DNA of 64,000 nt from Gaiellales bacterium (lineage in GTDB: Bacteria > Actinomycetota > Thermoleophilia > Gaiellales > Gaiellaceae), in NCBI GenBank assembly GCA_038216085.1, contig JBBQQI010000002.1, forward strand, positions 374-64,373. The letters are read 5' to 3'. Of the stretch, positions 5,635-36,658 are shown piece by piece (the first letter of the stretch is position 1; each line of letters begins with the position of its first letter). A program made the position numbers and the translations under genes. Below the pieces are notes generated by a model. The model was not told where the DNA came from, did not search any database, and was given only the letters and a program-made list of their open reading frames with translations.

Positions 5635-5651
5635 GCTTTACTTTGTATAGC
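5635..5651. promoter_or_regulatory. 17-bp palindrome site S1 (GCTTTA-CTTTG-TATAGC)
   Basis: AT-rich imperfect palindrome in the divergent region between the small ORF and gltB. One mismatch to GCTTYA-N5-TRAAGC. Confidence 0.45.
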
Positions 5652-5702
5652 GCAACTCCGTATGGCGAAAAGCTTGGCGCGAGTTGCGCGCGAGTCTCCA
5701 TT

Positions 5703-5719
5703 GCTTTACTCTTTGAAGC
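5703..5719. promoter_or_regulatory. 17-bp palindrome site S2 (GCTTTA-CTCTT-TGAAGC)
   Basis: Exact match to GCTTYA-N5-TRAAGC. It lies 68 bp (centre to centre) from S1 and about 30 bp upstream of the gltB start. Confidence 0.5.
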
Positions 5720-5751
5720 ATTAGACTAGAGCCAGGCGGGAGGTGGAGCCG

Positions 5752-8700
5752 ATGAAAGCGACGGGGCTCTACGACCCGGCCTACGAACATGACGCATGCG
5801 GCGTCGCATTCGTGGCGCGGCTCGACGGCGTGCAGACCCACGAGGCGATCAGGCGTGCGCTGACTGCGCTCGAGAACCTCGAGCATCGCGGGGCGGCCGG
5901 CGCCGACGCAGAGACCGGCGATGGCGCGGGGATCCTCGTGCAGATGCCGGACGCATTTCTGCGCAGCGTGTCGGGGATCGCGCTCCCGCCCGCCGGCACC
6001 TATGGCGTTGCCGTCTGCTTCCTGCCGCAGGAGCGAGCGCGGAGGCTCGAGCTCGAGCGCGTGCTGGAGGAAGTCGTCGCCGAGGAGGGCCAGACCGTGC
6101 TCGGCTGGCGTGACGTGCCCGTCGACAGCCGACATGTGGGATCGCACGCACGCCTCTTCGCGCCGTGCATCCGGCAGCTCTTCGTCGCCGCCTCGCCCGA
6201 GCTTGCGAACGACGCGGCGGCGTTCGAGCGGCGGCTCTACGTGATCCGGCGCGTCGCCGAGGGCCGCGCCGGGCTCGTGCTGCCGAGCTTCTCGGCGCGC
6301 ACGCTCGTCTACAAGGGGATGCTGACCTCCCCGCAGCTCGGGCGCTTCTTCCCCGACCTGGCCGACGAGCGCTTCGCAAGCGCGCTCGCGCTCGTGCACT
6401 CCCGCTTCTCGACGAACACATTCCCGAGCTGGGAGCTCGCCCATCCCTATCGCATTATCGCGCACAACGGTGAGATCAACACGCTGCGCGGCAACGTCAA
6501 CTGGATGCGCGCACGCGAGTCGCAGCTCGCCTCGGAGCTCTTCGGCGACGACATCGAGAAGGTTCTGCCGGTCGTCCGGCCGGGCGGCTCCGACACCGCG
6601 GTATTCGACAACGTGCTCGAGCTGCTCGTCCTCTCGGGCCGCTCACTGCCGCACGCGCTGATGATGATGGTGCCCGAGGCGCACGCCGGCCGGGCGGATG
6701 TCTCCGACGAGCTGCGCGGCTTCTACGCGTTCCACGACTGCCTGACGGAGGCCTGGGACGGCCCGGCGGCGATCGCGTTCACCGACGGACGCCTGATCGG
6801 CGCGACGCTCGACCGCAACGGCCTGCGGCCAGGGCGCTGGCTGGAGACGCGCGACGGCTGGGTCGTGCTCGCCTCCGAGGCCGGTGTGCTGGAGATCCCG
6901 ATCGAGAACGTCCTGCGCAAGGGACGGCTGCAGCCGGGCAAGCTGTTCGTCGTCGACCTCGAGCAAGGCCGGATCGTCCCGGACGGCGAGCTGAAGCAGC
7001 AGGTCGCGACGCGCAAGCCGTACGCCGAGTGGTTCGAGCGGGAGCACGTGCGACTCGCCGACCTGCCGAAGCGCACGACGCGCCGGGCGCCGGCGGAGCC
7101 GCTGCGCCGGCTGCAGCTCGCGTTCGGCTACTCGCAGGAGGACATGAAGGTGATGCTGGCGCCGCTCGCCGTCAACGCCGAGGAGGCGATCGGCTCGATG
7201 GGGAACGACACGCCCCTCGCGGCGCTCTCCGACCGGCGGCCGCTTCTCTACTCCTACTTCAAGCAGCTCTTCGCGCAGGTCACGAACCCGCCGATCGACT
7301 CGACCCGTGAGGCGATCGTGATGAGCGTCCAGTCGCTCGTCGGCTCCGAGCGCAACCTCCTCGACGAAACGCCCGAGCACGCGCGGCAGCTCGTGATCGA
7401 GAATCCGATCCTGCGTGACTCGCAGCTCGAGAGCCTGCGTCAGGTCGACTCCGAGATCTTCAAGGCGCACACCCTCGACGTCACGTGGCCAGTCGAGGAA
7501 GGGCCGGCCGGTCTCGAGCGCGCGCTCGAGCGCCTGTGCGCAGACGCCGATGTTGCCCTTGCGCAGCGGGCGAACATCCTGATTCTCTCCGACCGCGCCG
7601 CCGGCGCCGGGCGCGCGCCGATTCCGTCGCTGCTCGCGGTCGGCGCGGTGCACCACCATCTCGTTCGCGCCGGTACCAGGCTGCAGGCAGGCCTCGTCGT
7701 CGAGTCCGGCGAGCCGCGCAGCGTGCAGAGCGTCGCCGTGTTGATCGGCTACGGCGCCGCGGCCGTGAACCCGTACCTGATGCTCGCGACGATCGGGCAG
7801 CTCGTCGACGAGGGGCGGATCGAGCTTTCGCGCGAGGAGGCCGAGGAGCGCGCGATCAAGGCGGTCGGCAAGGGCCTCCTGAAGGTGATCTCGAAGATGG
7901 GCATCTCGACGATCTCGTCCTATTGCGGTGCGCAAGTCTTCGAAGCTGTCGGGCTCTCTTCGGCGCTCATCGAGCGCTACTTCACCGGCACGGCGTCGCG
8001 GATCGGCGGCATCGGCCTCGCCGAACTCGCCGAGGGCGTCCTCGTGCGCCACGCCCGTGCCTACCCGGGCACGCCCGGCGAGCTGCTGCCCGTCGTCGGG
8101 CTCTTTGCCTGGCGGCGAGACGGCGAGCATCACCAATGGAATCCTGAGACGATCGCGTTGCTCCAGCACGCAGTGCGCGGGGGCGGCCGGCAGACCTACG
8201 ACGAGTTCGCGGCGGCCGTCAACGCCGAGAGCGCCCGGCGCTCCACCCTGCGCGGCCTGCTGCGCTTCCGGGTCGCCGCGGGCGGAGCGATCCCGCTCGA
8301 GCAGGTCGAACCGGCCGCCGACATCGTTAAGCGCTTCTCGACCGGTGCGATGTCGCTCGGCTCGCTCTCGCGCGAAGCTCACGAGACGCTCGCCGTCGCG
8401 ATGAACCGCATCGGCGGACGTTCCAACACCGGCGAGGGCGGCGAGGATCCGGAGCGGTTCGGCGACGAGCGCCGGTCGAAGATCAAGCAGGTCGCATCCG
8501 GCCGCTTCGGCGTCAACATCGACTACCTGACGAACGCCGACGAGCTCCAGATCAAGATGGCGCAGGGCGCGAAGCCCGGCGAGGGCGGACAGCTGCCCGG
8601 ACACAAAGTCGACCGGTACATCGCTGGCGTGCGGCTGACCACTCCGGGCGTCGGGCTGATCTCCCCGCCGCCGCACCACGACATCTACTCGATCGAGGAT

Positions 8701-10251
8701 CTCAAGCAGCTGATCTACGACCTGCGCTGCGCCAACCCCGACGCGCGCATCTCGGTCAAGCTCGTCGCCGAGGTCGGCGTCGGCACGGTCGCTGCGGGCG
8801 TTGCGAAATCGAACGCCGACCACGTGCTGATCTCCGGGCACGACGGCGGCACCGGCGCTTCGCCGATCTCGTCGATCCTGCACGCGGGCGTGCCCTGGGA
8901 GATCGGGCTCGCGGAGACTCAGCAGACGCTCGTGCTCAACGACCTCCGTTCGCGCATCTGGGTGCAGACCGACGGACAGCTGAAGACCGGCCGCGACGTC
9001 GTCGTCGCCGCGCTCCTCGGCGCCGACGAGATGGGATTCGCCACCGCCCCGCTGATCGCAACGGGCTGCGTGATGATGCGCGCCTGCCATCTGAACACCT
9101 GCCCGGTCGGGATCGCGACCCAGGACCCCGAGCTGCGCACGCGGTTCCGCGGCCAGCCGGAGCACGTGATCGAGTTCTTCTTCCTCGTCGCCGAGGACGT
9201 GCGGCGGCTCATGGCCTCGCTCGGCGTCGCCCGATTCGAGGATCTTGTCGGCCGCGTCGACCTGCTCGAGCCCGACGACGCGCTCGAGCACTGGCAGGAA
9301 CGCGGTATCGACATCTCGAATCTCCTGCGCGCACCCGATGTGCCTGCGGGCACGCCGCTCCGGCGCGTCGAGTCGCAGGCCTCGCCGCTCGGTGGGGCAC
9401 TCGACTGGGCGTTGATCGACGCCGCGCGCTGCTCTCTGGAGGATGGCGTGACGGTCAGCGCCAGTTTCGCGGTGCGCAACGTCGACCGGACGATCGGCGG
9501 GCTGCTCTCACACCACGTCACGAAGCTCCACGGCCGCGCGGGGCTGCCGCCCGGGACGATTCGCTTCGACCTGCGCGGCTCGGCCGGGCAGTCGTTCGGC
9601 GCTTGGCTCGCACCGGGGATCGAACTGACCCTGACCGGCGAGGCCAACGACTACGCGGGCAAGGGCCTCTCGGGCGGGACGATCGCCGTGCGGCCGCCGC
9701 TCGAGGCGACCTTCCCGGCCGAGGAGAACGTGATCGTCGGCAACACCGTCCTCTACGGCGCAACCGCGGGGCGCGCGTTCTTCCGCGGCGTCGCAGGCGA
9801 GCGGTTCGCCGTCCGCAACTCGGGCGCAGACGCCGTCGTGGAAGGTGTCGGCGACCACGGCTGCGAGTACATGACCGGCGGTCACGTCATCGTGCTCGGC
9901 CCGACGGGCCGCAACTTCGCCGCCGGGATGAGCGGCGGGATCGCCTACGTCCTCGACGAGGACGGCGCGTTCGCAAGCCGCTGCAACCGCCAGCTCGTCG
10001 GATTGGACCCGCTCGAGGCGGAAGACGAGGCGATCGTGCTCGCGCTCGTGCAGGAGCACGCCGACCGCACCGGCTCGACGGTCGCGGCGCGGCTGCTCGC
10101 AGACTGGAGCGCGGCGAGTTTCGTGAAGGTGATCCCGCACGACTACAAGCGCGCGCTCGCCGAGCTCGGCGACGAGATTCGCTATCACGACCATCCCGTC
10201 TCGGCAGGCGGCGTCGGCTTCGTGACCAAGGAATCCGAGGAAGCCGCCTGA
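5752..10251 (+). CDS. gltB: glutamate synthase large subunit
   Basis: Ntn-amidotransferase N-terminus (HDACGVAFV), the FMN/4Fe domain and the C-terminal GXGXG domain are all recognisable. I prefer ATG 5752 (SD GGAGGTGGAG 5739-5748) over GTG 5743. Confidence 0.96.
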
Positions 10252-11705
10252 TGGGCAAGATCGGGGCGTTCCTGAACGTCCGCCGCGCCGAGGCGCCCGA
10301 GCGTGCGCCGGCCGAGCGCATCGGCGACCTCCGTGAGTTCATCGGGACACTCCCGCTCGTCGAGCTTCGTGAGCAGGCGTCGCGGTGCATGGAGTGCGGC
10401 GTGCCCTTCTGCCACAGCGGCTGCCCGCTCGGGAACCTGATTCCCGACTGGAACGACCTCGTCTACCGGGACCGGTGGGCCGAGGCGAGCGAGCAGCTGC
10501 ATCGCACGAACAACTTTCCCGAGTTCACCGGCCGGCTCTGTCCGGCGCCGTGCGAGGCGGCCTGCGTGCTCGAGATCAACGAGGGTGATGCCGTCTCGAT
10601 CAAGCAGATCGAGCTCGCGATTGTCGACCGAGCCTGGGACGAGGGCTGGATCGTCCCGCAGCCGCCTGCTCGCGCGACGGGCCGGCGCGTCGCTGTCGTC
10701 GGCGCCGGCCCTGCGGGGCTCGCGTGCGCGCAACAGCTCGCGCGGGCCGGAGAGCACGTGACGGTCTACGAGCGCGACGAGGCAGCAGGCGGGCTGATCC
10801 GGTTCGGCGTGCCCGAGTTCAAGATCGAGAAGCGCCTCGTCGAGCGTCGTGTCCAGCAACTCGTCGCCGAAGGCGTCGAGTTTCGGTTCGGCGTCGACGT
10901 CGGCACCGACCTCGAGGTCGAGGAGCTTCGCTCGCGCCACGACGCCGTCGTGCTGGCGATCGGGTCGCGCGTGCCGCGCGACCTGCCGGCGCAGGGGCGC
11001 GAGCTCCGCGGTGTGCACTTCGCGATGGAGTACCTCGCAGAGCGGGCGCGCGTGATCGCCGGAACGGCCCCGGCGACTATCTCGGCCGCCGGCAGGCACG
11101 TCGTCGTGATCGGCGGCGGTGATACCGGCGCCGACTGCGTGCGGCACGCCCACCGCGAAGGCGCCGCGTCGGTGACGCAGATCGAGCTGCTCGGCGAACC
11201 GCCCGCGGCGCGCCCCGATGAGCTCACACCGTGGCCGCTCTGGCCGATGAAGCTGCGCACCTCCTATGCGCTCAAGGAAGGCGGCGAGCGCGACTTCTCG
11301 ATCTCGACCACGCGGTTCGATGGGCGTGACGGCGCTGTCGAACGGATCGTCTGGCAGCACAACACCGGCAGCCCGCCGTTCGATCTCGTCCCGGGGACCG
11401 AGGAGTCGCGTCCAGCCGACCTCGTGCTGCTCGCGATGGGGTTCCTTGGCCCCGAGCCGGCGCTCCTCGACGGGCTCGGCCTCGACCGGGACGCGCGCGG
11501 CAATGTCGCCGCCGCACGATTCGCCACCTCGCGGGCCGGGGTCTTCGCGGCCGGTGACGCGCGGCGCGGGCAGTCGCTGATCGTGTGGGCGATCGACGAG
11601 GGTCGTCGCTGCGCCGAGGTGGTGCGGCAGTGGCTCGACGCGGGCGCTGGGTCACGCGAACAGCCCACTTTTGTTTCGATAGCTTCGAGTCGCGGCACGG
11701 AGTAG
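10251..11705 (+). CDS. gltD: glutamate synthase small subunit (NADPH)
   Basis: The ATG overlaps the gltB stop (TGATG). It has Fe-S Cys clusters (CMECGVPFCHSGCP, CPAPCEAAC) and the dinucleotide motif VAVVGAGPAGLA. The upstream part of ORF 9603..11705 is R-rich junk. Confidence 0.95.
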   Translation: MGKIGAFLNVRRAEAPERAPAERIGDLREFIGTLPLVELREQASRCMECGVPFCHSGCPLGNLIPDWNDLVYRDRWAEASEQLHRTNNFPEFTGRLCPAPCEAACVLEINEGDAVSIKQIELAIVDRAWDEGWIVPQPPARATGRRVAVVGAGPAGLACAQQLARAGEHVTVYERDEAAGGLIRFGVPEFKIEKRLVERRVQQLVAEGVEFRFGVDVGTDLEVEELRSRHDAVVLAIGSRVPRDLPAQGRELRGVHFAMEYLAERARVIAGTAPATISAAGRHVVVIGGGDTGADCVRHAHREGAASVTQIELLGEPPAARPDELTPWPLWPMKLRTSYALKEGGERDFSISTTRFDGRDGAVERIVWQHNTGSPPFDLVPGTEESRPADLVLLAMGFLGPEPALLDGLGLDRDARGNVAAARFATSRAGVFAAGDARRGQSLIVWAIDEGRRCAEVVRQWLDAGAGSREQPTFVSIASSRGTE

Positions 11706-11715
11706 ACTGCGGGCC

Positions 11716-12084
11716 ATGAAACGGACGATGAACGACACACACGATGAGGGCTGCGCAGTTGCGGCGACCGCCGAGATCATCGCGACCAAGTGGACGCCGC
11801 TGATCATTCACGACCTCTCCGAAGGCGCCCGGCGCTTCATGCAACTCGAGCACGCCTGCCCGGGAATCAGCCCGCGGACGCTCTCCGAACGCCTCGACAT
11901 GCTGGAGCGGCAGGGTGTGGTGATCCGTCGCAGCTATCCGGAATCGCCGCCGCGGGTCGAGTACGAGCTGACGGAAAAGGGACGCGCGCTGCTGCCGATC
12001 GTCAGGGAGATGCGCCGCTTCGGGCGCGCCTGGATGATCACCCAGCCCGTGAAACGCCGGCGCGCTCCGGCAGCACGCCGCTGA
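11716..12084 (+). CDS. HxlR family transcriptional regulator
   Basis: Signature C-x...GKW-like (IATKWTPLIIHDL), ARRFMQLE...ISPRTLSERL..LE..G...R, and PPRVEYELTEKG. Confidence 0.8.
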   Translation: MKRTMNDTHDEGCAVAATAEIIATKWTPLIIHDLSEGARRFMQLEHACPGISPRTLSERLDMLERQGVVIRRSYPESPPRVEYELTEKGRALLPIVREMRRFGRAWMITQPVKRRRAPAARR

Positions 12085-12099
12085 CGCAGTAGCGTTATC

Positions 12100-12116
12100 G
12101 CTTCAAGTTCTGAAGC
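12100..12116. promoter_or_regulatory. 17-bp palindrome site S3 (GCTTCA-AGTTC-TGAAGC)
   Basis: Perfect palindromic arms. It abuts a TTGACA -35-like hexamer (12117-12122) upstream of the BCAA leader. Confidence 0.5.
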
Positions 12117-12154
12117 TTGACAACATCACAACCTGCGTGCACACTGCGTCTTCG

Positions 12155-12259
12155 ATGACTCGTGAAGCCCTGACGATGCCGACGACCAAGCCGCTTGCGG
12201 CGACGTCGGCGCTCGGGCTCGTTCTTCTTCTCACGGTCATTCTCATTCTCCCCCTCTAG
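12155..12259 (+). CDS. BCAA-rich leader peptide (34 aa, MTREALTMPTTKPLAATSALGLVLLLTVILILPL)
   Basis: Hand-translated sORF, below the ORF-track cutoff. Eleven of the last 15 codons are Leu/Val/Ile. Its stop lies inside the hairpin tctccccc-tcta-gggggaga (12247-12266). It sits 100 nt upstream of the leuA-ilv operon. Confidence 0.55.
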   Translation: MTREALTMPTTKPLAATSALGLVLLLTVILILPL

Positions 12260-12360
12260 GGGGAGAACACGCTCACGCGGCAGTCAAACGCCGCACACGC
12301 CCACCGTAAAACGGAAGTAGTGCGTCTCCATTTCGGAACGACGCCGGCGAGGAGCATGGA

Positions 12361-13500
12361 ATGCGCAGGATCAAGATCTTCGACACGACACTGAGAGACG
12401 GAGAGCAATCGCCGGGCATCGCGCTGCGCCCGGAGGAGAAAGCAGAGATCGGTCGCGCCCTCGAACTGCTCGGAGTCGACATCATCGAGGCCGGCTTCGC
12501 CGCCTCGTCCCCCGGCGACTTCGCAGGCGTCGCAGCGGTCGCCCAGGCCGTCACGCGCGTCACCGTCGCCTCCCTCGCCCGCACGACGCAGGCCGACATC
12601 GACGCCGCCGCCCGCGCGCTGCGCGGCGCGCCCCGAAGTCGGATCCACATCTTCATGGCGACGAGCGCGCTCCACATGGAGCGGAAGCTCGGCCTGACCC
12701 CGGACGAGGTGCTCGAGCGGATCCACTGGGCGGTCGCCTATGCCGTCAAATGCGCGGACGAGGTCGAGTTCTCGGCTGAGGACGCGACCCGCTCCGACCG
12801 CGCATTCCTCGCCTCCGCCTGCCGCACGGCGATCGCAGCCGGCGCCACGATCGTCAACCTGCCCGACACCGTCGGCTTCTCGACGCCCGACGAATACGCG
12901 CGCATGTTCGACGACCTGCGCGAGCGCTGCCCCGAGCTGAACGACGTCGAGTTGTCGGTGCACTGCCACGACGACCTCGGGCTCGCGGTCGCGAACTCGC
13001 TCGCCGGCATCTCGGCGGGAGCGACCCAGGTCGAGTGCACGATCAACGGCATCGGCGAGCGCGCGGGCAACGCTGCGCTCGAAGAGATCGTGATGGCGCT
13101 TCGTGTCCGCTCCGACGTCTACGACGCGGCGACGGAGGCCGATCCGAGCATGATCCGCGACGCCTCCAGTCTCGTCGCCGAGCTGACCGGGTACGACGTG
13201 GCGCGCAACAAGCCGATCGTCGGCGCGAACGCCTTCGCGCACGAGGCCGGCATCCATCAGGACGGGATGCTCAAGGACTCCTCGACCTACCAGATCATCG
13301 ACCCGGCCGAGCTCGGCGTCGCGATGTCGCTGCCGCTCGGCAAGCACTCCGGGCGCCACGCCTTCGCGCGTGCGTGCGCCGCAGCGGGCATCTCGCTCGA
13401 CCCGGCCGAGATCGCCGCGGCCTTCCGCCGCTTCAAACAGCTCGCCGACACCGGCGTCGCTCCATCCATCGACGACGTCTTTCAGGAGGTCCGTGCATGA
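12361..13500 (+). CDS. leuA: 2-isopropylmalate synthase family protein, short form lacking the C-terminal LeuA_dimer regulatory domain
   Basis: It has [42 protein letters not shown] and [10 protein letters not shown]. It ends at 379 aa, just after the [10 protein letters not shown]...FKQLAD region. SD GAGGAG lies 6 nt upstream. Confidence 0.8.
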
Positions 13501-16668: not shown

Positions 16669-16684
16669 AGAGGACTATTCACTG

Positions 16685-18980: not shown

Positions 18981-19920
<940 letters not shown>

Positions 19921-19921
<1 letters not shown>

Positions 19922-22466: not shown

Positions 22467-22468
22467 GG

Positions 22469-23626
22469 TCAGGCTCGCTCCAGCAGCTTCCTGATCGCGC
22501 GCGTCGCCTGGCCGATTCGCTGCTCGTTCTCGACGAGCGCGAAGCGCACGTGACCGTCACCACCTTCCCCGAATCCGATCCCCGGGCTGACCGCGACGCC
22601 GGCCTCTCGCGCCAGGCGCAGGGCGACCTCGAGAGATCCGAGCGCACGGTACGGCTCGGGGATCGGTGCCCACACGAACATCGTCCCGCGTGGCGGTTCG
22701 ACCGGCCAACCCGCCCGGTCGAGGCCGCTGCACAGCGCGTCGCGGCGGCGGCGGTAGACCTCGCAGACCTCGGCGGGGTAGTCGGATGCCTGCCGGAGCG
22801 CGACCGTGGCGGCGATCTGGATCGGCTGGAACGTTCCGTAGTCGAGGTAGGACTTCAGCTTCGCGAGCGCCGCGACGACCTCCGGGCAGCCGACGACGAA
22901 GCCAACGCGCCAGCCGGCCATCGAGAAGGACTTGGTCAGGCTGTAGAGCTCGACCGCGCACGTTGCGGCGCCGTCGGCCGCGAGCACGGACGGCGGCCGG
23001 TGCCCGTCGAACGCCACGTCGGCGTAGGCGAAGTCGTGCACGAGCACGAAGTCGTGCTCGCGCGCGAGGTCGACGAGGCGCTGCATGTCGGCCCCGGTCG
23101 CAACAGCGGTCGTCGGGTTGTGCGGGAAGGAGACGATCACGACGCGCGGCTTCGCCGCGCGGACGGCGTCGGCGATCGCATCGATCCCGTCGGCAGCAAG
23201 CGGCGTGACGACCGTCGCGCCGGCCAGGCGCGGCGCAACCCGGTGGATCGGATAGGCCGGGGTCGGCACGACCACGGTGTCGCCGGGCGCCGCCAGCACC
23301 CACATCAGATGCGCCAGCCCTTCCTTGGCGCCGATCGTGCTCACGACCTGGGTCTCCGGGTCGAGGTCGACCCCGAAGGAGCGCTCGTAGTGCTCAGCGA
23401 CGGCCAGGCGAAGCTGCGCGATGCCGCGGCTCGCCGAGTAACGGTGGTTGGCCGGCTTGAGGGCCGCCTCGCGCAGCTTCTCGACCGCGACCGCCGGCGA
23501 CGGGAGATCGGGATTGCCGAAGCCGAGGTCGACGATGTCCCTGCCCTCGTGCCGCAGCTCGCGCTTCAACTGGTCGACCGTCGCGAAGACGTAGGGCGGC
23601 AGGTCGTCGATCCGGTAAAACTTCAT
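22469..23626 (-). CDS. class I/II pyridoxal-phosphate aminotransferase (AlaT/LL-DAP-aminotransferase-like)
   Basis: It has MKFYRIDDLPPYVF...DLGFGNPD, the SLTKSFSMAGWRVG PLP-lysine motif, and NPTT. The start is ATG 23624-23626, with an alternative at 23653. Confidence 0.85.
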   Translation of the reverse strand: MKFYRIDDLPPYVFATVDQLKRELRHEGRDIVDLGFGNPDLPSPAVAVEKLREAALKPANHRYSASRGIAQLRLAVAEHYERSFGVDLDPETQVVSTIGAKEGLAHLMWVLAAPGDTVVVPTPAYPIHRVAPRLAGATVVTPLAADGIDAIADAVRAAKPRVVIVSFPHNPTTAVATGADMQRLVDLAREHDFVLVHDFAYADVAFDGHRPPSVLAADGAATCAVELYSLTKSFSMAGWRVGFVVGCPEVVAALAKLKSYLDYGTFQPIQIAATVALRQASDYPAEVCEVYRRRRDALCSGLDRAGWPVEPPRGTMFVWAPIPEPYRALGSLEVALRLAREAGVAVSPGIGFGEGGDGHVRFALVENEQRIGQATRAIRKLLERA

Positions 23627-23636
23627 TTCGGAAAGT
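23620..23636. promoter_or_regulatory. 17-bp palindrome site S4 (ACTTCA-TTTCG-GAAAGT)
   Basis: Degenerate copy of the motif in the 25-bp gap between the aminotransferase and thrC-like 1. It overlaps the aminotransferase start codon, so this is the weakest instance. Confidence 0.3.
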
Positions 23637-23651
23637 ATTGTAGGAGAGCCC

Positions 23652-24869
23652 ATGGCTGTTGAAACGCTCAGATGTCGAGTCTGTGAAGCGGAATACCCCG
23701 CCGTCGCAAGCGGGGTGTGCGTTCGCTGCTTCGGTCCCCTCGAGCCCGTCTACGACTGGGATGCGGTCGCGCGCGCGGTCAGCCGCGAGAGCATCGCGGC
23801 AGGGCCGGCGTCCCTCTGGCGCTACGAGGCGCTCCTGCCGACGGCAGCTCCTGCAGACGCCGCCGGCGGGCCGGGGTGGACGCCGCTCGTGCGCGCGCCA
23901 CGGCTCGCGCAGGCGCTCGGGATCGCCGAGTTGTTCCTGAAGCTCGACCACTCAAACCCGACGCACTCCTTCAAGGACCGCGTCGTCGCCGTCGCCGCCG
24001 CCAAGGCCGCCGAGCTCGGCCTCGAGACGCTCGCGTGCGCATCGACCGGCAACCTCGGGAACGCCGTCGCCGCCCGCGCGGCCGCGAGCGGGATGCGCTC
24101 CGTCGTCCTCTATCCGGAGACCGTCGAGCCGGAGAAGCTGCTTGCGACCGCGGTGTACGGCGGCGAGATGTACGCCGTCCGCGGCACCTACGACGACTGC
24201 TCGCGCCTCGTGGTCGAGCTGGCCGGCGAGCTCGACTGGGCGTTCGTGAACGTGAACCTGCGCTCGTACTACGCAGAGGGATCGAAGACGCTTGCGTTCG
24301 AGATCGCCGAGCAGCTCGGCTGGCAGCTGCCGGACGCGGTCGTGGCGCCGGTCGCATCCGGGTCGCTCTTCACGAAGCTCTGGCAGGGGTTCGAGCAGTT
24401 CGGGCGTCTCGGCCTGGTCGACGGTGATAGCCCGCGCATCTACGGCGGGCAGGCCGAAGGCTGTGCGCCTGTCGCGCACGCCTATGCCGAAGGCCGGCCG
24501 GTCTCGCCGATCCGTCCCGCGACGATCGCGCACTCGCTCGCGATCGGAGCGCCCGCCGACGGCGACCTGGCGATCGCAACCGCGCATGCATCTGGCGGGA
24601 CGATCTACGCCGTCGCCGAGGACGACATCGGCGCGAACATGTCGCTCCTCGCAGGAACCTGCGGTGTCTTCGGCGAGACCGCCGCCGGTGTGACGATCGG
24701 CGCGTTGCGCGCGGCGGCCGCCTCCGGTGAGATCGGCGAGGGAGACCGCGTCGTCGCGCTGATCACCGGCTCGGGATTGAAGACGCCCCAGGTGGTCGAC
24801 GTCCGCGAGGGCACACACATCGACGCCGACGTCGACGAGCTGCTTGCCGGGCTCGGGGTCAGCGTATGA
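23652..24869 (+). CDS. threonine synthase-like PLP enzyme with N-terminal Cys4 zinc ribbon (paralog 1)
   Basis: It has CRVCEAEY...CVRCFG, then NPTHSFKDRVV (PLP Lys) and CASTGNLGNA. 405 aa with SD AGGAG upstream. The stop overlaps the leuB start (ATGA). Confidence 0.75.
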   Translation: MAVETLRCRVCEAEYPAVASGVCVRCFGPLEPVYDWDAVARAVSRESIAAGPASLWRYEALLPTAAPADAAGGPGWTPLVRAPRLAQALGIAELFLKLDHSNPTHSFKDRVVAVAAAKAAELGLETLACASTGNLGNAVAARAAASGMRSVVLYPETVEPEKLLATAVYGGEMYAVRGTYDDCSRLVVELAGELDWAFVNVNLRSYYAEGSKTLAFEIAEQLGWQLPDAVVAPVASGSLFTKLWQGFEQFGRLGLVDGDSPRIYGGQAEGCAPVAHAYAEGRPVSPIRPATIAHSLAIGAPADGDLAIATAHASGGTIYAVAEDDIGANMSLLAGTCGVFGETAAGVTIGALRAAAASGEIGEGDRVVALITGSGLKTPQVVDVREGTHIDADVDELLAGLGVSV

Positions 24870-28857: not shown

Positions 28858-29161
28858 CGAAGCCAGGGCCGCACGCGTTGGTCTTCGACACCTTCTGACG
28901 GTTCGAACGGTGTCGGCCGGTCATCAAGATTTCGTACACCTTGATTGGGATGGCCGCGCCGTGAAACTCATACACGTGAACCTCACGCTTGACGGTAGCG
29001 ATCGTCGTTCCCGATGGTTCTTGGCCGCTCCAGACGGTAATACGTTGTCCGCTTTTTTGGGGATCAACATCTGCGCAGTTGCGCAGTTTCTTCGCGGTCG
29101 GGTGAAAGAATATACATTCGCCGCTGGGGTGTTGCGCGATCCCAGCCAACCCCAGTCTGTC

Positions 29162-31624: not shown

Positions 31625-31635
31625 GGTTTCAGCGT

Positions 31636-31800
31636 TAGAGGCTTGATGTGGATCTCATGCACTCGCGGATAGTGACTCAGACACGTCACAGCTCGCCCGG
31701 GTCGGGCTTGGACATAGTCACCGCTATGCGCTTCGCCCGCCCGAACGAGCTGCTTGGTCTGAGCCATCCCGCAAGCACCCCAATCCACATCAAGCCTCTA
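31636..31800. repeat. 165-bp element bounded by a perfect 18-bp inverted repeat (tagaggcttgatgtggat / atccacatcaagcctcta)
   Basis: The arms are at 31636-31653 and 31783-31800, and the interior has further rod-like pairing. Read as a 16-bp TIR, the element is flanked by TA on both sides. It fills the thrC-like 2 to ppc spacer. Confidence 0.6.
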
Positions 31801-33015
31801 CGAATCGAGGCCGAGTGCCGCGAGCACCTCGCGGGCATCGGGGGCGATCGCCTGCGCACTGCCGACGCCGGCGAGGTCGAGCTGCGGCCGCGACCCGGTG
31901 ACGACGAGCACCACGCGCGACCCGGCCTCGATCTCGCCGCGGCGGATCGCCTCGACGAGTGCGCCAAACGCCGCGCCGCCCGCGCAATCGGCCTCGATCC
32001 CGACTGTCTCGGTGAGCAGAGCGGTGTGCGCCGCAATCGCCTCTTCGGACACCGCGTGGACGGCGCCTCCCGTTGCGCGCGCGGCGCCGAGTGCGAGGTC
32101 GCCGTGTGACGGGTTACCGACCGCGAGCGACGGCACACCGGTGCTCGCCTCGACGCGGGAGATGCTGCGGTCGCCGGCGAAGGCGTCGGCGATCGGGCTC
32201 GATCCCTGTGACTGCCCTGCGAAGAGGCGCGGCACGGGCACGTGCGAGAGGCCGGCGCGCGTCAGCTCCGAGAAGCCCTGCGCGAGCTTCGAGAACAACG
32301 TCCCGCTTGCGGCGGGGCAGACGACGGCGTCGGGGAGCTGCCACTCGAGCTGTTCGGCGATCTCGAAGGAGATCGTCTTCGCACCCTCGCTCGCGTAGGG
32401 ATGGAGATTGCCGCTGACGAAGCCCCATGGGAAGAGCGCGCCGAGCTCGAGCTCGAGGCGGCGGCAGTCGTCGTAGGTGCCCGAGACGGCAAAGACGCGG
32501 GCGCCCGGGTGACGCGCGGCAACGGTCCCGGCGCCGACGCCGGCAGGTGCGAGCACCATCGCCTCGAGCCCGGTGGCGGCCGCCGCGGCGGCGACGGCGT
32601 CGCCGAGGTTGCCCGTCGACGAGCAGCAGACAGTCGTCAACCCGTGCTCGAGGGCCGCCGAGACCGCAAGGGTCGCGATCCGGTCCTTGTAGGAGCGGGT
32701 CGGGTTCTCGCCTTCGAGCTTCAGCAGCAGGTCGATCCCGAGCAGGTCCGAGAGCGAGTCGACGCGCTCGAGCGGCGTCCAGCCCGCCTGGACGCCCATG
32801 GCGGCTGCTGTGGGCAAGAGCGCCGAGTAGCGCCACAGCGAGGGCGGCCCGGCCGCCACCGATGCGGGGCTCACGAGGCGGCCGATCCGCCGCCAGTCGT
32901 AGGCCACGTCCGTCGGGCCGTCGCAGCGCCGGCACGCGTCGAGCGGCTCGAGCTCGGTCACCTCTTCGCAGACGCGGCAGCGCAATGCGGTGGAGCCGTG
33001 CGAGAACGGGCTCAT
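31798..33015 (-). CDS. threonine synthase-like PLP enzyme with N-terminal Cys4 zinc ribbon (paralog 2)
   Basis: It has CRVCEEV...CRRCDG, NPTRSYKDRIA and CSSTGNLGDA. I prefer ATG 33013-33015 (SD GGGGGA) over TTG 33036. Confidence 0.75.
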   Translation of the reverse strand: MSPFSHGSTALRCRVCEEVTELEPLDACRRCDGPTDVAYDWRRIGRLVSPASVAAGPPSLWRYSALLPTAAAMGVQAGWTPLERVDSLSDLLGIDLLLKLEGENPTRSYKDRIATLAVSAALEHGLTTVCCSSTGNLGDAVAAAAAATGLEAMVLAPAGVGAGTVAARHPGARVFAVSGTYDDCRRLELELGALFPWGFVSGNLHPYASEGAKTISFEIAEQLEWQLPDAVVCPAASGTLFSKLAQGFSELTRAGLSHVPVPRLFAGQSQGSSPIADAFAGDRSISRVEASTGVPSLAVGNPSHGDLALGAARATGGAVHAVSEEAIAAHTALLTETVGIEADCAGGAAFGALVEAIRRGEIEAGSRVVLVVTGSRPQLDLAGVGSAQAIAPDAREVLAALGLDS

Positions 33016-33183
33016 CTGCTGCAGTCCCCCGTCCAAATTGTGGAACCTAACCGGGGGGACGGGTGTGTCCGGCTAGGCCAGTCGCGCGCAGGCGATGGCC
33101 GAAATGAGAAAAACCGGCTTCATCGTCGCTGCGGGGCGCATGCGGAGAAGTCTACAGCGACGGCGGCAAAACCTCAACTACTC

Positions 33184-33200
33184 GCTTCAGTTTGTGTAGT
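33184..33200. promoter_or_regulatory. 17-bp palindrome site S5 (GCTTCA-GTTTG-TGTAGT)
   Basis: The left half is exact and the right half matches 4/6. It overlaps a putative -10 TAGTAT (33197-33202) of the PII-amtB leader. Confidence 0.4.
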
Positions 33201-33247
33201 ATCGGACTCGTCCGGTCGCCGCTGCAGGCGGCCGGCAGAGGCATCGA

Positions 33248-33292
33248 GGCCTCGGAAGCACCGTTTTTTGGTGCTCCCGAGGCCTTTTTTTT
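33248..33292 (+). terminator. strong intrinsic terminator inside the PII-amtB leader (candidate attenuator)
   Basis: A 15-position stem (ggcctcggaagcacc / ggtgctcccgaggcc, 14 bp with one A.C mismatch), loop gtttttt, then T8 (33285-33292). It ends 24 nt before the PII start codon. The upstream gene is divergent, so this terminates no upstream CDS. Confidence 0.7.
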
Positions 33293-33315
33293 GTGTCCAA
33301 ACGGGAGGTGGAGCG

Positions 33316-33669
33316 GTGGTGAAGGTCGAGGCGATTGTGATCCGTGAGCGGGTGGAGACGGTGATCGACGCGGTGGAGCAGGCGACCGGGCACGTCGGTG
33401 TGACCGTGATCGAGGCGATCGGTCATGGCCGCGAGCGTGGCGTCACGCACGAGTACCGCGGCCGGGTGTTCGAGTCCCGGTTCCTGCCGAAGGCGATGCT
33501 CGTCTTCGTCGTCGCCGACTCGCTGGCCGACGGCGCGATCGCAGCGATCGTCGATGCGGCGCGGAGCGGGAACGAGTCGGGCGACGGGCTCTGCTGGGCC
33601 TCGCCCGTGTCGAGTGTGATGCACAACCGGACGGGCGTCAGCCTGGAGGAGGTTGGTGTCGGTGCCTAA
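33316..33669 (+). CDS. glnB: P-II family nitrogen regulatory protein
   Basis: Hand-delimited from ORF 32242..33669: VKVEAIVIRERVETVIDAVEQATGHVGVTVIEAIGHGRERGVTHEYRGRVFESRFLPK... SD GGGAGGTG lies at 33303-33310, with GTG at 33316 or 33319. Confidence 0.85.
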   Translation: MVKVEAIVIRERVETVIDAVEQATGHVGVTVIEAIGHGRERGVTHEYRGRVFESRFLPKAMLVFVVADSLADGAIAAIVDAARSGNESGDGLCWASPVSSVMHNRTGVSLEEVGVGA

Positions 33670-35065
33670 GAACCATGACTTGCTGATTGCCGCGTCGACC
33701 ATCTGGGTCGTGATCACGGCGGTGCTCGTGATGTTCATGCAGGCCGGTTTCGCGTTCCTGGAAGCCGGGCTGACGAGGATGAAGAACGCCGGGCACATCG
33801 CCGGCAAGAACGTGCTGATTTTCGGCATCTGCTCGATCGTCTACTGGGCGGTCGGCTTCGGAATCGCCTTCGGCGACGGCAACGGCCTCGTCGGGACGGC
33901 TGGGTTCTTCCCGTCGGTCGTCGCGCTGACCTCGGTCGGGAAGGCGCCGTTTGACTGGTTCTCGGAGATACCGGGGGCGGCCGGCTATTTGTTCGAGGTC
34001 GTCTTCGCCGGCGTCTCGCTCGCGATCGTCTGGGGCGCCATGGCCGAGCGGGCCAAGCTCTGGGTCTACTTCGTCTTCGGCGTCTGGTTCACGATCACCT
34101 ACTCAATCGTCTCGCACTGGATCTGGTCGCCGCACGGCTGGCTGTTCAAGCACGGCATGCAGGACTTCGCCGGCTCGACGGTCGTCCACTACCAAGGCGC
34201 ACTCGCAGCACTGGCGGGCGCACTGATCCTGGGGCCGCGGATCGGCAAGTTTGGCACCGACGGGCGCGCGAACCCGATCCCGGGCCACAACATCCCGTAC
34301 GCCGTCCTCGGCACGCTGATCCTCTGGTTCGGCTGGTTCGGGTTCAACCCGGGCTCGACCCTGTCGGTCGACTACGGCGGCTTCGGCTACTTCGCCTACG
34401 TCGCGCTGACGACGAACATCGCCGCGGCCGCGGGTGCGGTCACCGGCATGTGCGTCGCCTGGGTCAAGCTCGGCAAGCCCGACATCTCGATGATGCTGAA
34501 CGGCGCGCTCGGCGCGCTGGTGGCGATCACCGCCGCCAGCGGCTTCGTCGCGCCGTGGGCGGCGATCCTGATCGGCGTCGGCTCCGGCTTCATCGCCGTC
34601 TTCGGCGTGATCTTCGTCGAGCGGATCGGGATCGACGACCCGATCGGCGCGGTCGCAGTGCACGGGATGTCAGGTGTCTGGGGCACGCTTGCGACCGGCA
34701 TCTTCGCCGTCCCGCTGCTGGCGAAGAACCTCGCAACCGGCACAGGCGGGCTCGTCTACACGGGGTCCTTCCACCAGCTCGGCATCCAGGCGCTCGGCCT
34801 CGTCGCCGTTGGGGCGTTCACGTTCTCGACGTCGTTCGGCGCGCTCTTCGTGATGCACAAGGTCTGGGGGATCCGCGTCGCACCCGAGGTGGAGACCGGC
34901 GGCCTCGACGTTCACGAGCACGGCATGTGGGGCTACCCCGAGTTCTACATCCCGGTTCCGGGCGGCTACGGCACCGATACCCATAGCCATCTCGGGACGG
35001 GCGGGGGGCGGTCGCAGCACACGCCGCTCGCCGTGCACGCGCCGACAACGGTCGGGGAGTCCTGA
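33653..35065 (+). CDS. amtB: ammonium transporter
   Basis: Amt/Rh motifs are present (MQAGFAFLEAG, DFAGSTVVHYQGA, AVHGMSGVWG) with about 11 TM segments. The start overlaps the PII end. Confidence 0.93.
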   Translation: MVSVPKNHDLLIAASTIWVVITAVLVMFMQAGFAFLEAGLTRMKNAGHIAGKNVLIFGICSIVYWAVGFGIAFGDGNGLVGTAGFFPSVVALTSVGKAPFDWFSEIPGAAGYLFEVVFAGVSLAIVWGAMAERAKLWVYFVFGVWFTITYSIVSHWIWSPHGWLFKHGMQDFAGSTVVHYQGALAALAGALILGPRIGKFGTDGRANPIPGHNIPYAVLGTLILWFGWFGFNPGSTLSVDYGGFGYFAYVALTTNIAAAAGAVTGMCVAWVKLGKPDISMMLNGALGALVAITAASGFVAPWAAILIGVGSGFIAVFGVIFVERIGIDDPIGAVAVHGMSGVWGTLATGIFAVPLLAKNLATGTGGLVYTGSFHQLGIQALGLVAVGAFTFSTSFGALFVMHKVWGIRVAPEVETGGLDVHEHGMWGYPEFYIPVPGGYGTDTHSHLGTGGGRSQHTPLAVHAPTTVGES

Positions 35066-35070
35066 ACATG

Positions 35071-35113
35071 GGGGAGGGGGCGGACGTCTCGGCTACGAGT
35101 CCGTTCCCTCCCC
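35071..35113. terminator. GC-rich hairpin between convergent amtB and moaD-like genes
   Basis: ggggaggg/ccctcccc (35071-78 / 35106-13) plus an inner cggac/gtccg stem. There is no U-tract. Confidence 0.4.
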
Positions 35114-35115
35114 TG

Positions 35116-35385
35116 CTACCCGCCGGCGACCGCCGGCAGCAGCAGGATCGTCGCCGCCGGCGAGACGGCCGCGTCGAGGCCGCCGAGCAGGCGGATGTCG
35201 TCGCCATCGACGAACACGTTCAGGTAGCTCGGCACGCCGTCGCCTTCAAGGAGCCGGCTCTCGAGGGCCGGGTGGATCGACACCAGCGCGCTCAGCGCCT
35301 CGCGCACCGTCGCCGCCTCGACCGCGACGGTGCGGTTGCCTGCGGCGTCGGGTCTCAGCACCGGGGGTATGCGGATCTGTGCCAC
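35116..35385 (-). CDS. MoaD/ThiS family sulfur-carrier-like protein (C-terminal GG)
   Basis: 89 aa with a beta-grasp pattern (IRIPPVLR...VFVDGDDI...ILLLPAVAGG-stop). GTG start. Confidence 0.75.
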   Translation of the reverse strand: MAQIRIPPVLRPDAAGNRTVAVEAATVREALSALVSIHPALESRLLEGDGVPSYLNVFVDGDDIRLLGGLDAAVSPAATILLLPAVAGG

Positions 35386-35388
35386 CTC

Positions 35389-35405
35389 GCTTCAAAAGAT
35401 AAAGC
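35389..35405. promoter_or_regulatory. 17-bp palindrome site S6 (GCTTCA-AAAGA-TAAAGC)
   Basis: Exact match to the motif. It lies in the 41-bp divergent gap between the moaD-like gene and the response regulator. Confidence 0.5.
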
Positions 35406-35426
35406 ATTGGCGAAAGGAGCGCGACG

Positions 35427-35963
35427 ATGGACGACCGCCTGCACGTCCTGATCGCCGAGGACGAGACGATCATTCGCCTCGACCTGCGGCAGCTGCTCGA
35501 GGAGGAGGGGCTCGTCGTCTGCGCCGAAGCGCGCGACGGGCTCGAAGCGATCGAGCTCGCGCGCGAGACCGAGCCGGATCTCGCGATTCTCGACGTGAAG
35601 ATGCCGAACCTGGACGGCATCGAGGCCGCGCGCCGCATCTACGCCGAGCGCCCGATTCCGATCGTGATGCTGACTGCGTACTCCGACCCGCCGCTCGTCG
35701 ACCGGGCGATCGGGGCAGGCGTCTTCGGCTACCTCGTGAAGCCGTTTCGCGCGGGCGACATCGTGCCCGCCGTGCGCGCCGCCGTCGCTCGCCACGAGGA
35801 GCTGCTGGCCTCCCGGCGGGACCGTGGCCGCGCCGGCCTGCCGATCGATGTCGATGTCCGCTCGGGCTCGGGAGGCGTCCACTCGTTGCGCCTCCGCCGC
35901 GGTCCGGACGGCGCGCTCAACGTGACACTCAGCCAGCCGGAGCGCGATTCCAAAACTTCATAA
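35427..35963 (+). CDS. response regulator, PdtaR-like receiver with a non-ANTAR C-terminal tail
   Basis: The receiver (VLIAEDETIIRLDL...DLAILDVKMPNLDG...VMLTAYSD...GYLVKPF) is followed by ~55 aa (LPIDVDVRSGSGGVHSLRLRRGPDGALNVTLSQP) with no ANTAR signature. Confidence 0.8.
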   Translation: MDDRLHVLIAEDETIIRLDLRQLLEEEGLVVCAEARDGLEAIELARETEPDLAILDVKMPNLDGIEAARRIYAERPIPIVMLTAYSDPPLVDRAIGAGVFGYLVKPFRAGDIVPAVRAAVARHEELLASRRDRGRAGLPIDVDVRSGSGGVHSLRLRRGPDGALNVTLSQPERDSKTS

Positions 35964-35971
35964 TGTAAAGT
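35955..35971. promoter_or_regulatory. 17-bp palindrome site S7 (ACTTCA-TAATG-TAAAGT)
   Basis: Symmetric variant (A/T at the outer positions). It overlaps the response-regulator stop codon and lies 8 nt upstream of the argB-like ATG. Confidence 0.4.
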
Positions 35972-35979
35972 GAGAGCTG

Positions 35980-36642
35980 ATGAGGCTCACGGTCGTCAAA
36001 TGCGGTGGTGCCGCACTGGCCAGGGAGCCGTTCGTCCTCGACCGCTTCGTGGAGCCGGGGAAGGGAGCCTGTGTCGTGCACGGCGCGGGCGGACGCATCT
36101 CTGCGGCTCTCGGCCGCGCGGGCATCGAGTCTCGTTTCGTCGGCGGGCGGCGCGTGACGAGCGAGGAGGCGCTGCCGCTCGTCCGCGAGGCGTTCGGCCG
36201 GGAGAACGGCGAGCTCTGCCGGCAGATCGGCGCGCGGGCCCACGGCCTGATGGGCGACGACCTGGGCCTCGAAGCCGACCTGCTGCCGGGGTTCGGCCGG
36301 GTGGGGATGCTGCGGCCGATCGTCCCCCCGAGTCTCTGGCGCCTGCTCGAGATCAAGCGCGTGCCGGTGATCGCTCCGCTCGCGCGCGGCCCGCTGAACG
36401 TCAATGCCGACGATGCTGCCGCCGTCCTGTCGATCGCGCTGTGCGCGGACCGGCTCGTCTTCGTCTCCGACGTCGCGGGCGTGATCGTCGACGGCGAGGT
36501 GGTCGAGGAGCTGTCTGCACAGGACATCGCCGGGCTGAACGGCGCGCTGAGCGGCGGGATCCTCCCGAAACTCGAAGCGGCGCTCGCCGCCGCACGCGAA
36601 GGAGTCCGCGCCGAGGTCGGCGCGACGCTCGTCGTCGCATAG
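35980..36642 (+). CDS. amino-acid kinase family protein, acetylglutamate kinase-like (short, 220 aa)
   Basis: It has VVKCGGA, VVHGAGGRI, GGRRVT, NVNADDAAA and GGILPKLEAALAAA, which are collinear with ArgB motifs. No other arg genes are nearby. Confidence 0.7.
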   Translation: MRLTVVKCGGAALAREPFVLDRFVEPGKGACVVHGAGGRISAALGRAGIESRFVGGRRVTSEEALPLVREAFGRENGELCRQIGARAHGLMGDDLGLEADLLPGFGRVGMLRPIVPPSLWRLLEIKRVPVIAPLARGPLNVNADDAAAVLSIALCADRLVFVSDVAGVIVDGEVVEELSAQDIAGLNGALSGGILPKLEAALAAAREGVRAEVGATLVVA

Positions 36643-36658
36643 CTTTACGTTTTGAAGT
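36642..36658. promoter_or_regulatory. 17-bp palindrome site S8 (GCTTTA-CGTTT-TGAAGT)
   Basis: One mismatch to the motif. It overlaps the argB-like stop codon and lies upstream of the cobA remnant and ask. Confidence 0.45.

Follow-up and report, generated by a model that had tools for sequence, protein, structure and literature searches.

We analysed a 64,000-nt stretch of genomic DNA from a Gaiellales bacterium (assembly GCA_038216085.1, contig JBBQQI010000002.1, positions 374–64,373; hereafter the window) and describe a DNA motif, GCTTYA-N5-TRAAGC, together with its candidate regulator. The 17-bp, two-fold symmetric motif occurs at nine sites in the window, and comparison with related loci supports the notion that it recurs as an operator at the promoters of nitrogen-assimilation and amino-acid biosynthesis genes, in the manner of a conserved regulon. 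Judged from its sequence context, it fits a transcription-factor operator rather than a promoter element or an RNA hairpin. The operator is probably that of a dimeric winged-helix factor, for which the HxlR/DUF24-family protein encoded at 11716–12084 is the most likely candidate. A first-pass annotation of the window, made from the letters alone, had listed at least eight copies of the motif (S1–S8). All eight are present in the sequence, and a ninth, putatively autoregulatory site (11667–11683), which had been overlooked, is added here.

The GC content of the whole window is ~70%, and the motif sites are among its most AT-rich islands. We derived a GC3-based gene map, annotated the encoded proteins with Pfam and obtained from this map a non-coding share of 8.7%. 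For comparison, we drew on genomes for 80 amtB loci and on metagenomes for 80 gltD loci, and added 4 contigs with HxlR orthologues (all referred to by L numbers); together with the window, these comprise 1.94 Mb. Relatives of its AmtB protein assign the window to Gaiellaceae (Thermoleophilia, Actinomycetota), the best match showing 90–91% amino-acid identity. The exact pattern GCTTYA-N5-TRAAGC is found three times in the window (at 5703, 12100 and 35389, corresponding to S2, S3 and S6) against 0.01 expected from dinucleotide shuffles, in agreement with the earlier estimate of fewer than 0.01 chance hits. Allowing up to two mismatches yields 13 matches, compared to 2.4 expected; S1 and S8 deviate from the exact pattern at one position, S5 and S7 at two and S4 at three. 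With a symmetrised matrix derived from the eight sites, these score 19.8–27.6 bits, and the next best sequence of the window is the ninth site at 11.3 bits. A matrix built only from 38 sites of other genomes recovers just the eight sites and the ninth, all at 19.7 bits or more, with a runner-up at 13.8 bits. Across the 1.94 Mb of loci, 28 sites reach at least 19 bits, whereas local shuffles confined to 40-nt blocks, which preserve composition and AT islands, yield 0.9. The intergenic enrichment that the first-pass annotation had proposed to look for with such a scan is pronounced: 40 of the 44 sites with at least 15 bits are intergenic, compared to a non-coding share of only ~9% in the window, and three of the four sites counted as coding are those just upstream of hxlR, which overlap the end of gltD.

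The 47 collected sites share the consensus RCTTYA-N5-TRWAGY with a T-rich spacer. C2, T3, A15 and G16 are invariant in 47 of 47 sites, bases that the search matrix itself selects, and the invariant C2 and T3 mirror A15 and G16. Position 4 is T in 42 of 47 sites. The centres of the half-sites are 10–11 bp apart, about one helical turn. All nine window sites lie in non-coding DNA or at gene junctions, within the interval 5.6–36.7 kb, where they neighbour (i) gltBD, (ii) hxlR, (iii) the leu/ilv/hom/thr genes, (iv) the aminotransferase and ThrC-like genes with leuB-pheA-leuCD, (v) PII-amtB, (vi) the genes for a ThiS-like protein and a response regulator, (vii) an amino-acid kinase gene and (viii) ask. 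No site is present at the ars, HU, SUI1 and proC genes or at the carbon and stress genes between 38 and 64 kb. Because these other promoters of the window lack a site, the motif is specific to nitrogen-assimilation and amino-acid operons and not a constituent of every promoter.

Conservation of individual sites is most extensive upstream of gltBD. S2 (5703–5719, forward strand, GCTTTACTCTTTGAAGC), the putative gltBD operator, contains the inferred −10 element TACTCT (5707–5712), and the −35 element TTGCGC (5684–5689, forward strand) was assigned by phylogenetic footprinting. The identical 17-mer is found in L082, L083, L161, L163 and L164, and near-identical sites occur in L088 (CCTTTACTCTTTGAAGT, two changes) and L095 (GCTTTAGTCTTTGAAGC, one change). 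S1 (5635–5651, minus strand, GCTTTACTTTGTATAGC) is located 68 bp upstream of S2; in its minus-strand reading, GCTATACAAAGTAAAGC-ATTAG, it stops 14 nt short of the ATG of a 95-amino-acid open reading frame (ORF; 5333–5620) that has no Pfam match. No orthologue of S1 was found in the relatives, in which an upstream ORF (uORF) occupies this region. The ninth site (11667–11683, forward strand, ACTTTTGTTTCGATAGC) is followed by 19 nt, the hexamer TAGACT (11703–11708), 7 nt and the ATG of the hxlR-like gene, and the same arrangement, with TAGACT or TACACT as hexamer, is common to L081, L082, L083, L101, L102, L113 and L163. S3 (12100–12116, forward strand, GCTTCAAGTTCTGAAGC) abuts the −35 element of the promoter for a Leu/Ile/Val leader peptide, as the first-pass annotation had noted: a conserved TTGACA directly follows the site and belongs to the promoter TTGACA-N17-CACACT (12117–12145, forward strand), inferred by alignment for the leader-leuA-ilv-hom-thr operon. 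The combination of S3, TTGACA and N17-CA(C/G)ACT is conserved in L081, L082, L102, L113 and L161–L164, and some of these loci carry a second upstream site at the leu leader.

The remaining sites likewise lie in intergenic or junctional positions, which the first-pass annotation had claimed throughout. S4 (23620–23636, no strand assigned, ACTTCATTTCGGAAAGT) lies between the divergent aminotransferase gene, whose ATG (23626–23624) falls inside the site, and the first ThrC-like gene (ATG at 23652); its orthologue is L005:25. S5 (33184–33200, forward strand, GCTTCAGTTTGTGTAGT) overlaps the putative −10 element TAGTAT (33197–33202) of the PII-amtB leader, confirming an overlap proposed before, and is conserved in L001, L003, L004, L005, L008 and L050. 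S6 (35389–35405, no strand assigned, GCTTCAAAAGATAAAGC) is placed between the ThiS-like gene and the gene for a receiver-only response regulator, 3 nt from the GTG start of the former on the minus strand and 21 nt from the ATG of the latter, and is conserved in L003, L005, L008 and L050. S7 (35955–35971, forward strand, ACTTCATAATGTAAAGT) overlaps the stop codon of the response-regulator gene and ends 8 nt before the ATG of a gene for a 220-amino-acid amino-acid kinase; its orthologue at L003:12257 lies 7 nt before the kinase ATG. S8 (36642–36658, forward strand, GCTTTACGTTTTGAAGT) abuts the kinase stop codon upstream of a 28-amino-acid uORF (36693–36779) and ask (36973). In L050, 6 nt separate the ask site from the GTG start codon that follows, an arrangement suggestive of a leaderless mRNA. 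Footprinting of the gltB, amtB and ilv upstream regions, as recommended by the first-pass annotation, reveals orthologous sites in close relatives. Further targets in relatives are genes for a 1-Cys peroxiredoxin (L009, L098, L124), Lon (L083), a beta-carbonic anhydrase downstream of amtB (L053) and leuC (L099). Only the lineage closest to the window has the motif, and most other Gaiellales loci examined contain none.

Alignments of orthologous upstream regions place the sites at different distances from the putative promoter elements. At gltB, TTGC is invariant exactly 17 nt upstream of TACTCT in seven aligned genomes with diverged flanks, and TACTCT itself occupies the middle of the invariant site. 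For PII-amtB, the site and TAGTAT overlap in the clade of the window, whereas in L009 and L010 the site is located ~15 nt upstream of a −10-like TAGGCT or TAAGGT; other Gaiellales have an ordinary TTGACG-N17/18-TAGnnT preceding the same PII leader RNA. The site centre relative to the inferred transcription start is about −9 at gltB, −17 at PII, −41 at hxlR and −45 at the leu leader; across all targets, the positions span roughly −9, −17, −36, −45 and −41. Among the orthologues of each target, the position of the site is fixed. A position that varies between targets yet is fixed for each of them points to a transcription-factor operator and not to a promoter element, and is consistent with the dimeric transcription factor that the first-pass annotation had envisaged.

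These data bear on three readings of the motif in which no DNA-binding regulator is required. A core promoter element, composed of a −10 and an upstream element for a housekeeping or alternative sigma factor, would account for the frequent TANNNT in the right arm and the bases downstream (TAAAGT, TATAGT, AAGTAT, TAGTAT), for sites 6–8 nt before start codons that have no Shine-Dalgarno sequence, as seen for ask in L050 and for the kinase gene of both the window and L003, and, with its 6-5-6 layout, for a resemblance to the −24/−12 architecture of sigma-54 promoters. Nevertheless, we consider such an element quite improbable. The offset to the conserved −35/−10 pair differs between targets: the site falls inside the pair at gltB, precedes TTGACA at the leu leader, lies 19 nt upstream of TAGACT in the case of hxlR, and takes the −35 position itself in L009 and L010; the motif has two-fold symmetry with invariant CT and AG, and the other promoter regions of the window are all devoid of it. 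GG-N10-GC is absent, there is no GG/GC pair, the distance to the inferred starts varies, and Actinobacteria are not known to have sigma-54. Since the orthologue alignments reveal separate conserved −35/−10 pairs at differing offsets, any special-promoter interpretation, including a sigma-54-like one, was dropped. A short RNA hairpin with a 6-bp stem and a 5-nt loop in 5′ untranslated regions or at cistron junctions, which the first-pass annotation had already ranked below an operator, is more remote still. S3 could form a perfect 6-bp stem, S2 and S8 could form stems that include G-U pairs, and the sites are near start codons, but pairing throughout the six positions is possible in only 8 of 47 sites, with pair 4–14 broken in 22 of 47 sites and pair 5–13 in 15 of 47. 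The gltB, hxlR and leu-leader sites moreover lie at or upstream of the inferred transcription start, and no Rfam family matches; on the pairing counts, we rejected the hairpin. The least credible reading is chance clustering of AT-rich intergenic sequence, which could be suspected given that intergenic DNA is relatively AT-rich in a 70% GC genome and that the sites were first selected by eye. It is contradicted by the block shuffles that keep AT islands intact, by the matrix from other genomes, which recovers the same sites, and by 17-mers that are invariant amid diverged flanks, and it was discarded on these grounds.

The candidate for the cognate factor is a 122-amino-acid winged-helix regulator of the HxlR/DUF24 family encoded at 11716–12084 on the forward strand (Pfam PF01638, E 2.9e-28, 98 bits versus a cutoff of 20.8), whose nearest solved homologues are HypR/YybR, PG_0823, HxlR, YodB and QsrR. 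Its gene is situated between two target operons, gltBD and leu/ilv, and had been pointed out in the first-pass annotation as the nearest unassigned regulator. Two observations on site distribution back this choice. (i) A site at the promoter of the gene itself is present in 9 of the 12 loci that carry an HxlR orthologue, the window included. It starts 49–50 nt before the hxlR ATG in the window, L081, L082, L083, L101, L102, L113 and L163, and 76 nt before it in L091. In L161 and L164, no site was detected upstream of hxlR at the scanning threshold of 11 bits, and in L162 the upstream DNA on the contig is too short for an assessment. (ii) The gltB site is present in six of six loci with visible gltB upstream DNA and an adjacent hxlR (window, L082, L083, L161, L163, L164) and is absent from nine loci that extend at least 4 kb beyond gltD and have no hxlR. 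Both a site at fixed distance in its own promoter and co-occurrence of the gltB site with the gene are as predicted for an autoregulated cognate factor. DUF24 proteins are moreover documented to bind palindromes of 15–17 bp, such as the YodB and HypR boxes, across two consecutive major grooves and also at their own promoters. The motif, at 17 bp and with half-sites about one turn apart, has the form of a (pseudo)palindrome of 15–20 bp expected of such an operator, and this family precedent forms part of the case for the HxlR protein.

Unusually strong conservation of the protein adds to this case: it is 80–94% identical over its best 120 relatives, mostly metagenome sequences, of which the named ones are Gaiellaceae. 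Recognition helix, helix-turn-helix and wing are invariant among these 120 orthologues, and Cys13 and Cys48, conserved at ≥98%, align with the redox cysteines Cys14 and Cys49 of Bacillus subtilis HypR. A paralogue in L010 (9457–9741, minus strand; 64% identical to the HxlR-family protein) lacks both cysteines and has no site upstream; in the same genome, the PII promoter carries the motif at the −35 position. Among the annotated proteins of the window, no other DNA-binding regulator is found near the sites. Three further regulatory proteins were considered and set aside: the ArsR protein is part of the ars operon and the LuxR response regulator part of a DosR-like cluster, and the response regulator flanked by S6 and S7 has no DNA-binding domain. 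The last of these proteins (35427–35963) consists of a receiver domain and a C-terminal tail of ~60 amino acids without Pfam match, and is conserved in L003, L005 and L008.

The competing assignment is that the operator serves another regulator encoded outside the window, e.g. an AmtR-like TetR protein or an Lrp-type protein, and that hxlR is just one more target. Some sites read CTATA-N5-TATAG (L081:4945, S1) and thereby resemble the AmtR box CTAT-N6-ATAG, and amtB-PII with gltBD is the classic target set of AmtR and GlnR. The spacing is, however, one base longer than in the AmtR box, the predominant T at position 4 differs from it, and no TetR, OmpR-type, MerR or Lrp domain is found among the annotated proteins of the window; the fixed-distance hxlR site and the gltB co-occurrence are what an autoregulated cognate factor predicts. 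We therefore regard another regulator as unlikely, albeit as the strongest of the alternatives. Several points nevertheless count against the HxlR protein as the factor, or against the regulon built on it. L095 is the sole locus with a gltB site but no adjacent hxlR, and the peroxiredoxin-gene sites of L098 and L124 likewise lack an adjacent hxlR, all three of which speak for the other regulator. The adjacency of hxlR to two target operons could mean that it is a regulated member only, with the true factor elsewhere. The promoter positions derive from phylogenetic footprints only, because a strict scan for E. coli-type sigma-70 consensus promoters and terminators returned nothing at gltB, hxlR/leu or the PII leader; the start distances, and with them the assignment of repression, are thus uncertain. 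All site counts refer to the collected loci, a matrix seeded from the window served to detect those in relatives, and sites shared by orthologues do not count as independent observations. Finally, a literature search found no precedent for a redox sensor controlling amtB and gltBD.

If the HxlR protein is the factor, the position of the sites would indicate how it acts. The AT-rich site overlaps the inferred −10 or start region at gltBD, PII-amtB, the kinase gene and ask, and probably at the response regulator and S8. A dimer bound there would exclude RNA polymerase, and we infer repression as the mode of action. Transcription from the 3′ edge of the gltB operator is supported by the uORF that begins 1 nt after the site in relatives. 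At its own promoter (about −41, if the mRNA is leaderless) and at the leu-leader promoter (about −45), the factor could activate or repress. As in HypR, YodB and QsrR, the factor may respond to oxidation or alkylation of thiols, a signal that is plausible because both HypR redox cysteines are conserved and that would fit the peroxiredoxin and Lon targets. GltBD, IlvD and LeuCD are iron-sulfur enzymes, a fit that is speculative. The factor would in this way couple redox or electrophile stress to nitrogen assimilation, iron-sulfur-dependent amino-acid synthesis and peroxiredoxin. The global nitrogen and amino-acid regulon proposed in the first-pass annotation is upheld by the orthologous conservation and intergenic enrichment of the sites. 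Its label is less secure: given the peroxiredoxin, Lon and carbonic anhydrase targets together with the HypR-type cysteines, "global nitrogen regulator" may be the wrong name. As a tentative proposal, about which we remain more doubtful than confident, a HypR-like two-cysteine thiol switch and not a GlnR/AmtR-type sensor may be the master regulator in the Gaiellaceae lineage of the window, the motif being unseen in other Gaiellales loci examined. Its scope would comprise PII-amtB, glutamate synthase, the aspartate-family and branched-chain pathways and sulfur-carrier-dependent synthesis, along with peroxiredoxin and Lon.

Several of the sites precede leaders with features of their own. Following S3, a 34-amino-acid leader peptide rich in Leu, Ile and Val (12155–12259, forward strand; MTREALTMPTTKPLAATSALGLVLLLTVILILPL) and a hairpin (CCCCCTCTAGGGGGAG) are located ahead of the leuA-like gene; the region looks like a classical Leu/Ile/Val attenuation leader layered on operator S3. 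The PII-amtB leader (33207–33315) folds, with a z-score of −4.5, into a P1 hairpin and, behind it, an intrinsic terminator of very high stability (GAGGCCUCGG...CCGAGGCC, then U8). The same leader is found upstream of PII in L001, L003–L005, L008–L012, L022, L026, L029, L030, L032, L037, L038, L041, L048, L052 and L053, and is thus kept across many Gaiellales whatever promoter precedes it. Permissive Rfam scans gave nothing meaningful for this leader or for the region between S8 and ask. The PII leader, which has no match in Rfam, is a candidate for an undescribed attenuator or riboswitch of ammonium-transport genes.

In relatives, the conserved uORF of 20–21 amino acids that starts behind the gltB operator (e.g. 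MDGADFLITKIVGKFARPRQR; L082:5381–5443, L083:5468–5533, L088:787–852, L161:3894–3959, L163:3873–3938, L164:3860–3925) is succeeded by a conserved hairpin (GCTAGCCGG...CCGGACTAGC) and the gltB Shine-Dalgarno sequence. The window lacks this uORF and the 5′ half of the hairpin, and contains S1 and the 95-amino-acid ORF in that space. The gap between S8 and ask (36659–36972) is 314 nt long, and its 28-amino-acid uORF has a good Shine-Dalgarno sequence. Three genes appear to be leaderless, with a TANNNT hexamer 6–8 nt before the start codon and no Shine-Dalgarno sequence: hxlR (11703–11716), the amino-acid kinase gene (35966–35980) and ask in L050 (17267–17279). The ThiS/MoaD-like small protein (35116–35385, minus strand) is encoded near two ThrC-like pyridoxal-phosphate enzymes (23652–24869, forward strand; 31798–33036, minus strand), both of which have N-terminal CxxC...CxxC motifs. 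This set suggests sulfur-carrier-protein-dependent amino-acid synthesis, and all three genes adjoin operator sites.

The gene order of the window starts with proC, a methyltransferase gene, an ArsR-ArsM-phosphatase cluster, SUI1 and HU, which precede S1 and S2, gltB and gltD, the ninth site and the HxlR-family gene. S3 and the leader peptide are followed by the leuA-like gene, ilvB(N)C, hom, a gene for a pyridoxal-phosphate-dependent PALP enzyme, thrB and ilvD. The aminotransferase gene (minus strand) is separated by S4 from the first ThrC-like gene, leuB, pheA and leuCD, and S5 separates ppc and the second ThrC-like gene (both minus strand) from PII and amtB. Next come the ThiS-like gene (minus strand), S6 and the gene for the receiver-only response regulator; S7, the 220-amino-acid kinase gene, S8, the 28-amino-acid uORF and ask complete the site-bearing part. 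The 38–64 kb region contains genes for acetate kinase, phosphoketolase, flavodoxin, malic enzyme, a LuxR-type response regulator, a GAF histidine kinase and a universal stress protein and further carbon and stress genes; the segment 38410–48793, to which these named genes belong, resembles the mycobacterial DosR regulon in our own comparison and is without the operator motif. No tRNA gene and no Rfam family at gathering thresholds were detected anywhere in the window.

Actinobacteria of the Thermoleophilia, especially the Gaiellaceae, are abundant in soil, and few of them have been cultured. The present analysis provides a concrete regulatory model for Gaiellaceae, consisting of one motif with nine sites in a single locus plus a named candidate regulator, that covers the control of ammonium uptake, glutamate synthase and amino-acid biosynthesis in a lineage in which evidence for GlnR or AmtR was not found. 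Should the assignment to the HxlR/DUF24 protein and the redox cysteines hold, the family, whose known role lies in small detoxification regulons, would also act in central anabolism. If the thiol switch is the master regulator as well, central nitrogen and amino-acid anabolism, much of it iron-sulfur-dependent, would be under direct redox or electrophile control by a DUF24-family protein. Should the assignment fail, the motif is still a useful regulon marker for annotating metagenome-assembled genomes of Gaiellaceae. What makes this comparative-genomics lead, which we consider solid, interesting is that its targets are unexpected for a protein of the DUF24 family, and that no literature on regulation was found for the lineage.

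Comparison of half-sites and spacing with the boxes of known nitrogen and amino-acid regulators agrees with the first-pass annotation, which had found no match. AmtR, a TetR-family repressor of Corynebacterium, shares the targets amtB-glnK/PII and gltBD and has a palindromic CTAT...ATAG box. This box is one base shorter (the CT-AG spacing is 10 nt, compared to 11 nt in the motif, taking the AmtR consensus from the first-pass annotation) and has A where the motif has T. GlnR of Streptomyces and Mycobacterium (OmpR family) shares the same core targets, but its boxes (gTnAc-n6-GaAAc) are direct repeats, whereas the motif is an inverted repeat. The regulon of the window differs from those of AmtR and GlnR by also spanning branched-chain, Thr and Asp-family genes, and the annotated proteins of the window include no DNA-binding regulator of TetR or OmpR type encoded beside the sites. 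The site of the MerR-family TnrA/GlnR, TGTNA-N7-TNACA, is equally 17 bp long, but the half-sites of the motif are CTTYA and TRAAG; a MerR domain was not found among these proteins either. CodY of Firmicutes resembles the proposed factor as a global regulator of branched-chain amino-acid and nitrogen metabolism that mostly represses at promoters through an AT-rich 15-bp palindrome, and differs in protein family (GAF plus winged helix-turn-helix), box (AATTTTCWGAAAATT), phylum and effectors (branched-chain amino acids and GTP). The motif is also unlike the ARG box. In our literature search, no paper connecting HxlR-family proteins with glutamate synthase or with nitrogen control was found, nor any on promoters or regulators of Gaiella.

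Closer parallels are found within the DUF24 family. The B. subtilis proteins YodB and CatR and the S. aureus protein QsrR are quinone- and diamide-sensing DUF24 repressors; as dimeric winged-helix proteins, they bind two consecutive major grooves at operators that overlap promoters. They differ in half-site sequence and in regulons composed of detoxification enzymes (azoreductases, nitroreductases, dioxygenases). The QsrR box, GTATA-N5-TATAC, and CTTYA-N5-TRAAG are alike in their 5+5+5 layout. YodB recognises the box TACT-N7-AGTA (PMC8063818). HypR, a MarR/DUF24 redox regulator of B. subtilis, is the best solved homologue of the window protein (E 1.3e-20), with a palindromic operator of ~16 bp and with both redox cysteines aligned. 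Its box, GTATCAAAATTGATAC, has a 7-2-7 repeat structure and occurs at the promoter of hypR as well; Cys14 and Cys49 form the intersubunit disulfide that switches HypR, and HypR acts as an activator at upstream positions and is probably a repressor of its own gene (PMC3351151). The HypR box is unrelated in sequence to the GCTTYA-type motif, and HypR controls a single flavin oxidoreductase, binding at −53 to −95 as an activator, whereas the window contains at least nine sites within 31 kb at nitrogen and amino-acid genes, mostly over the core promoter. No new type of mechanism is invoked: the system is a new regulon with a new box for a known regulator family acting in a known way.

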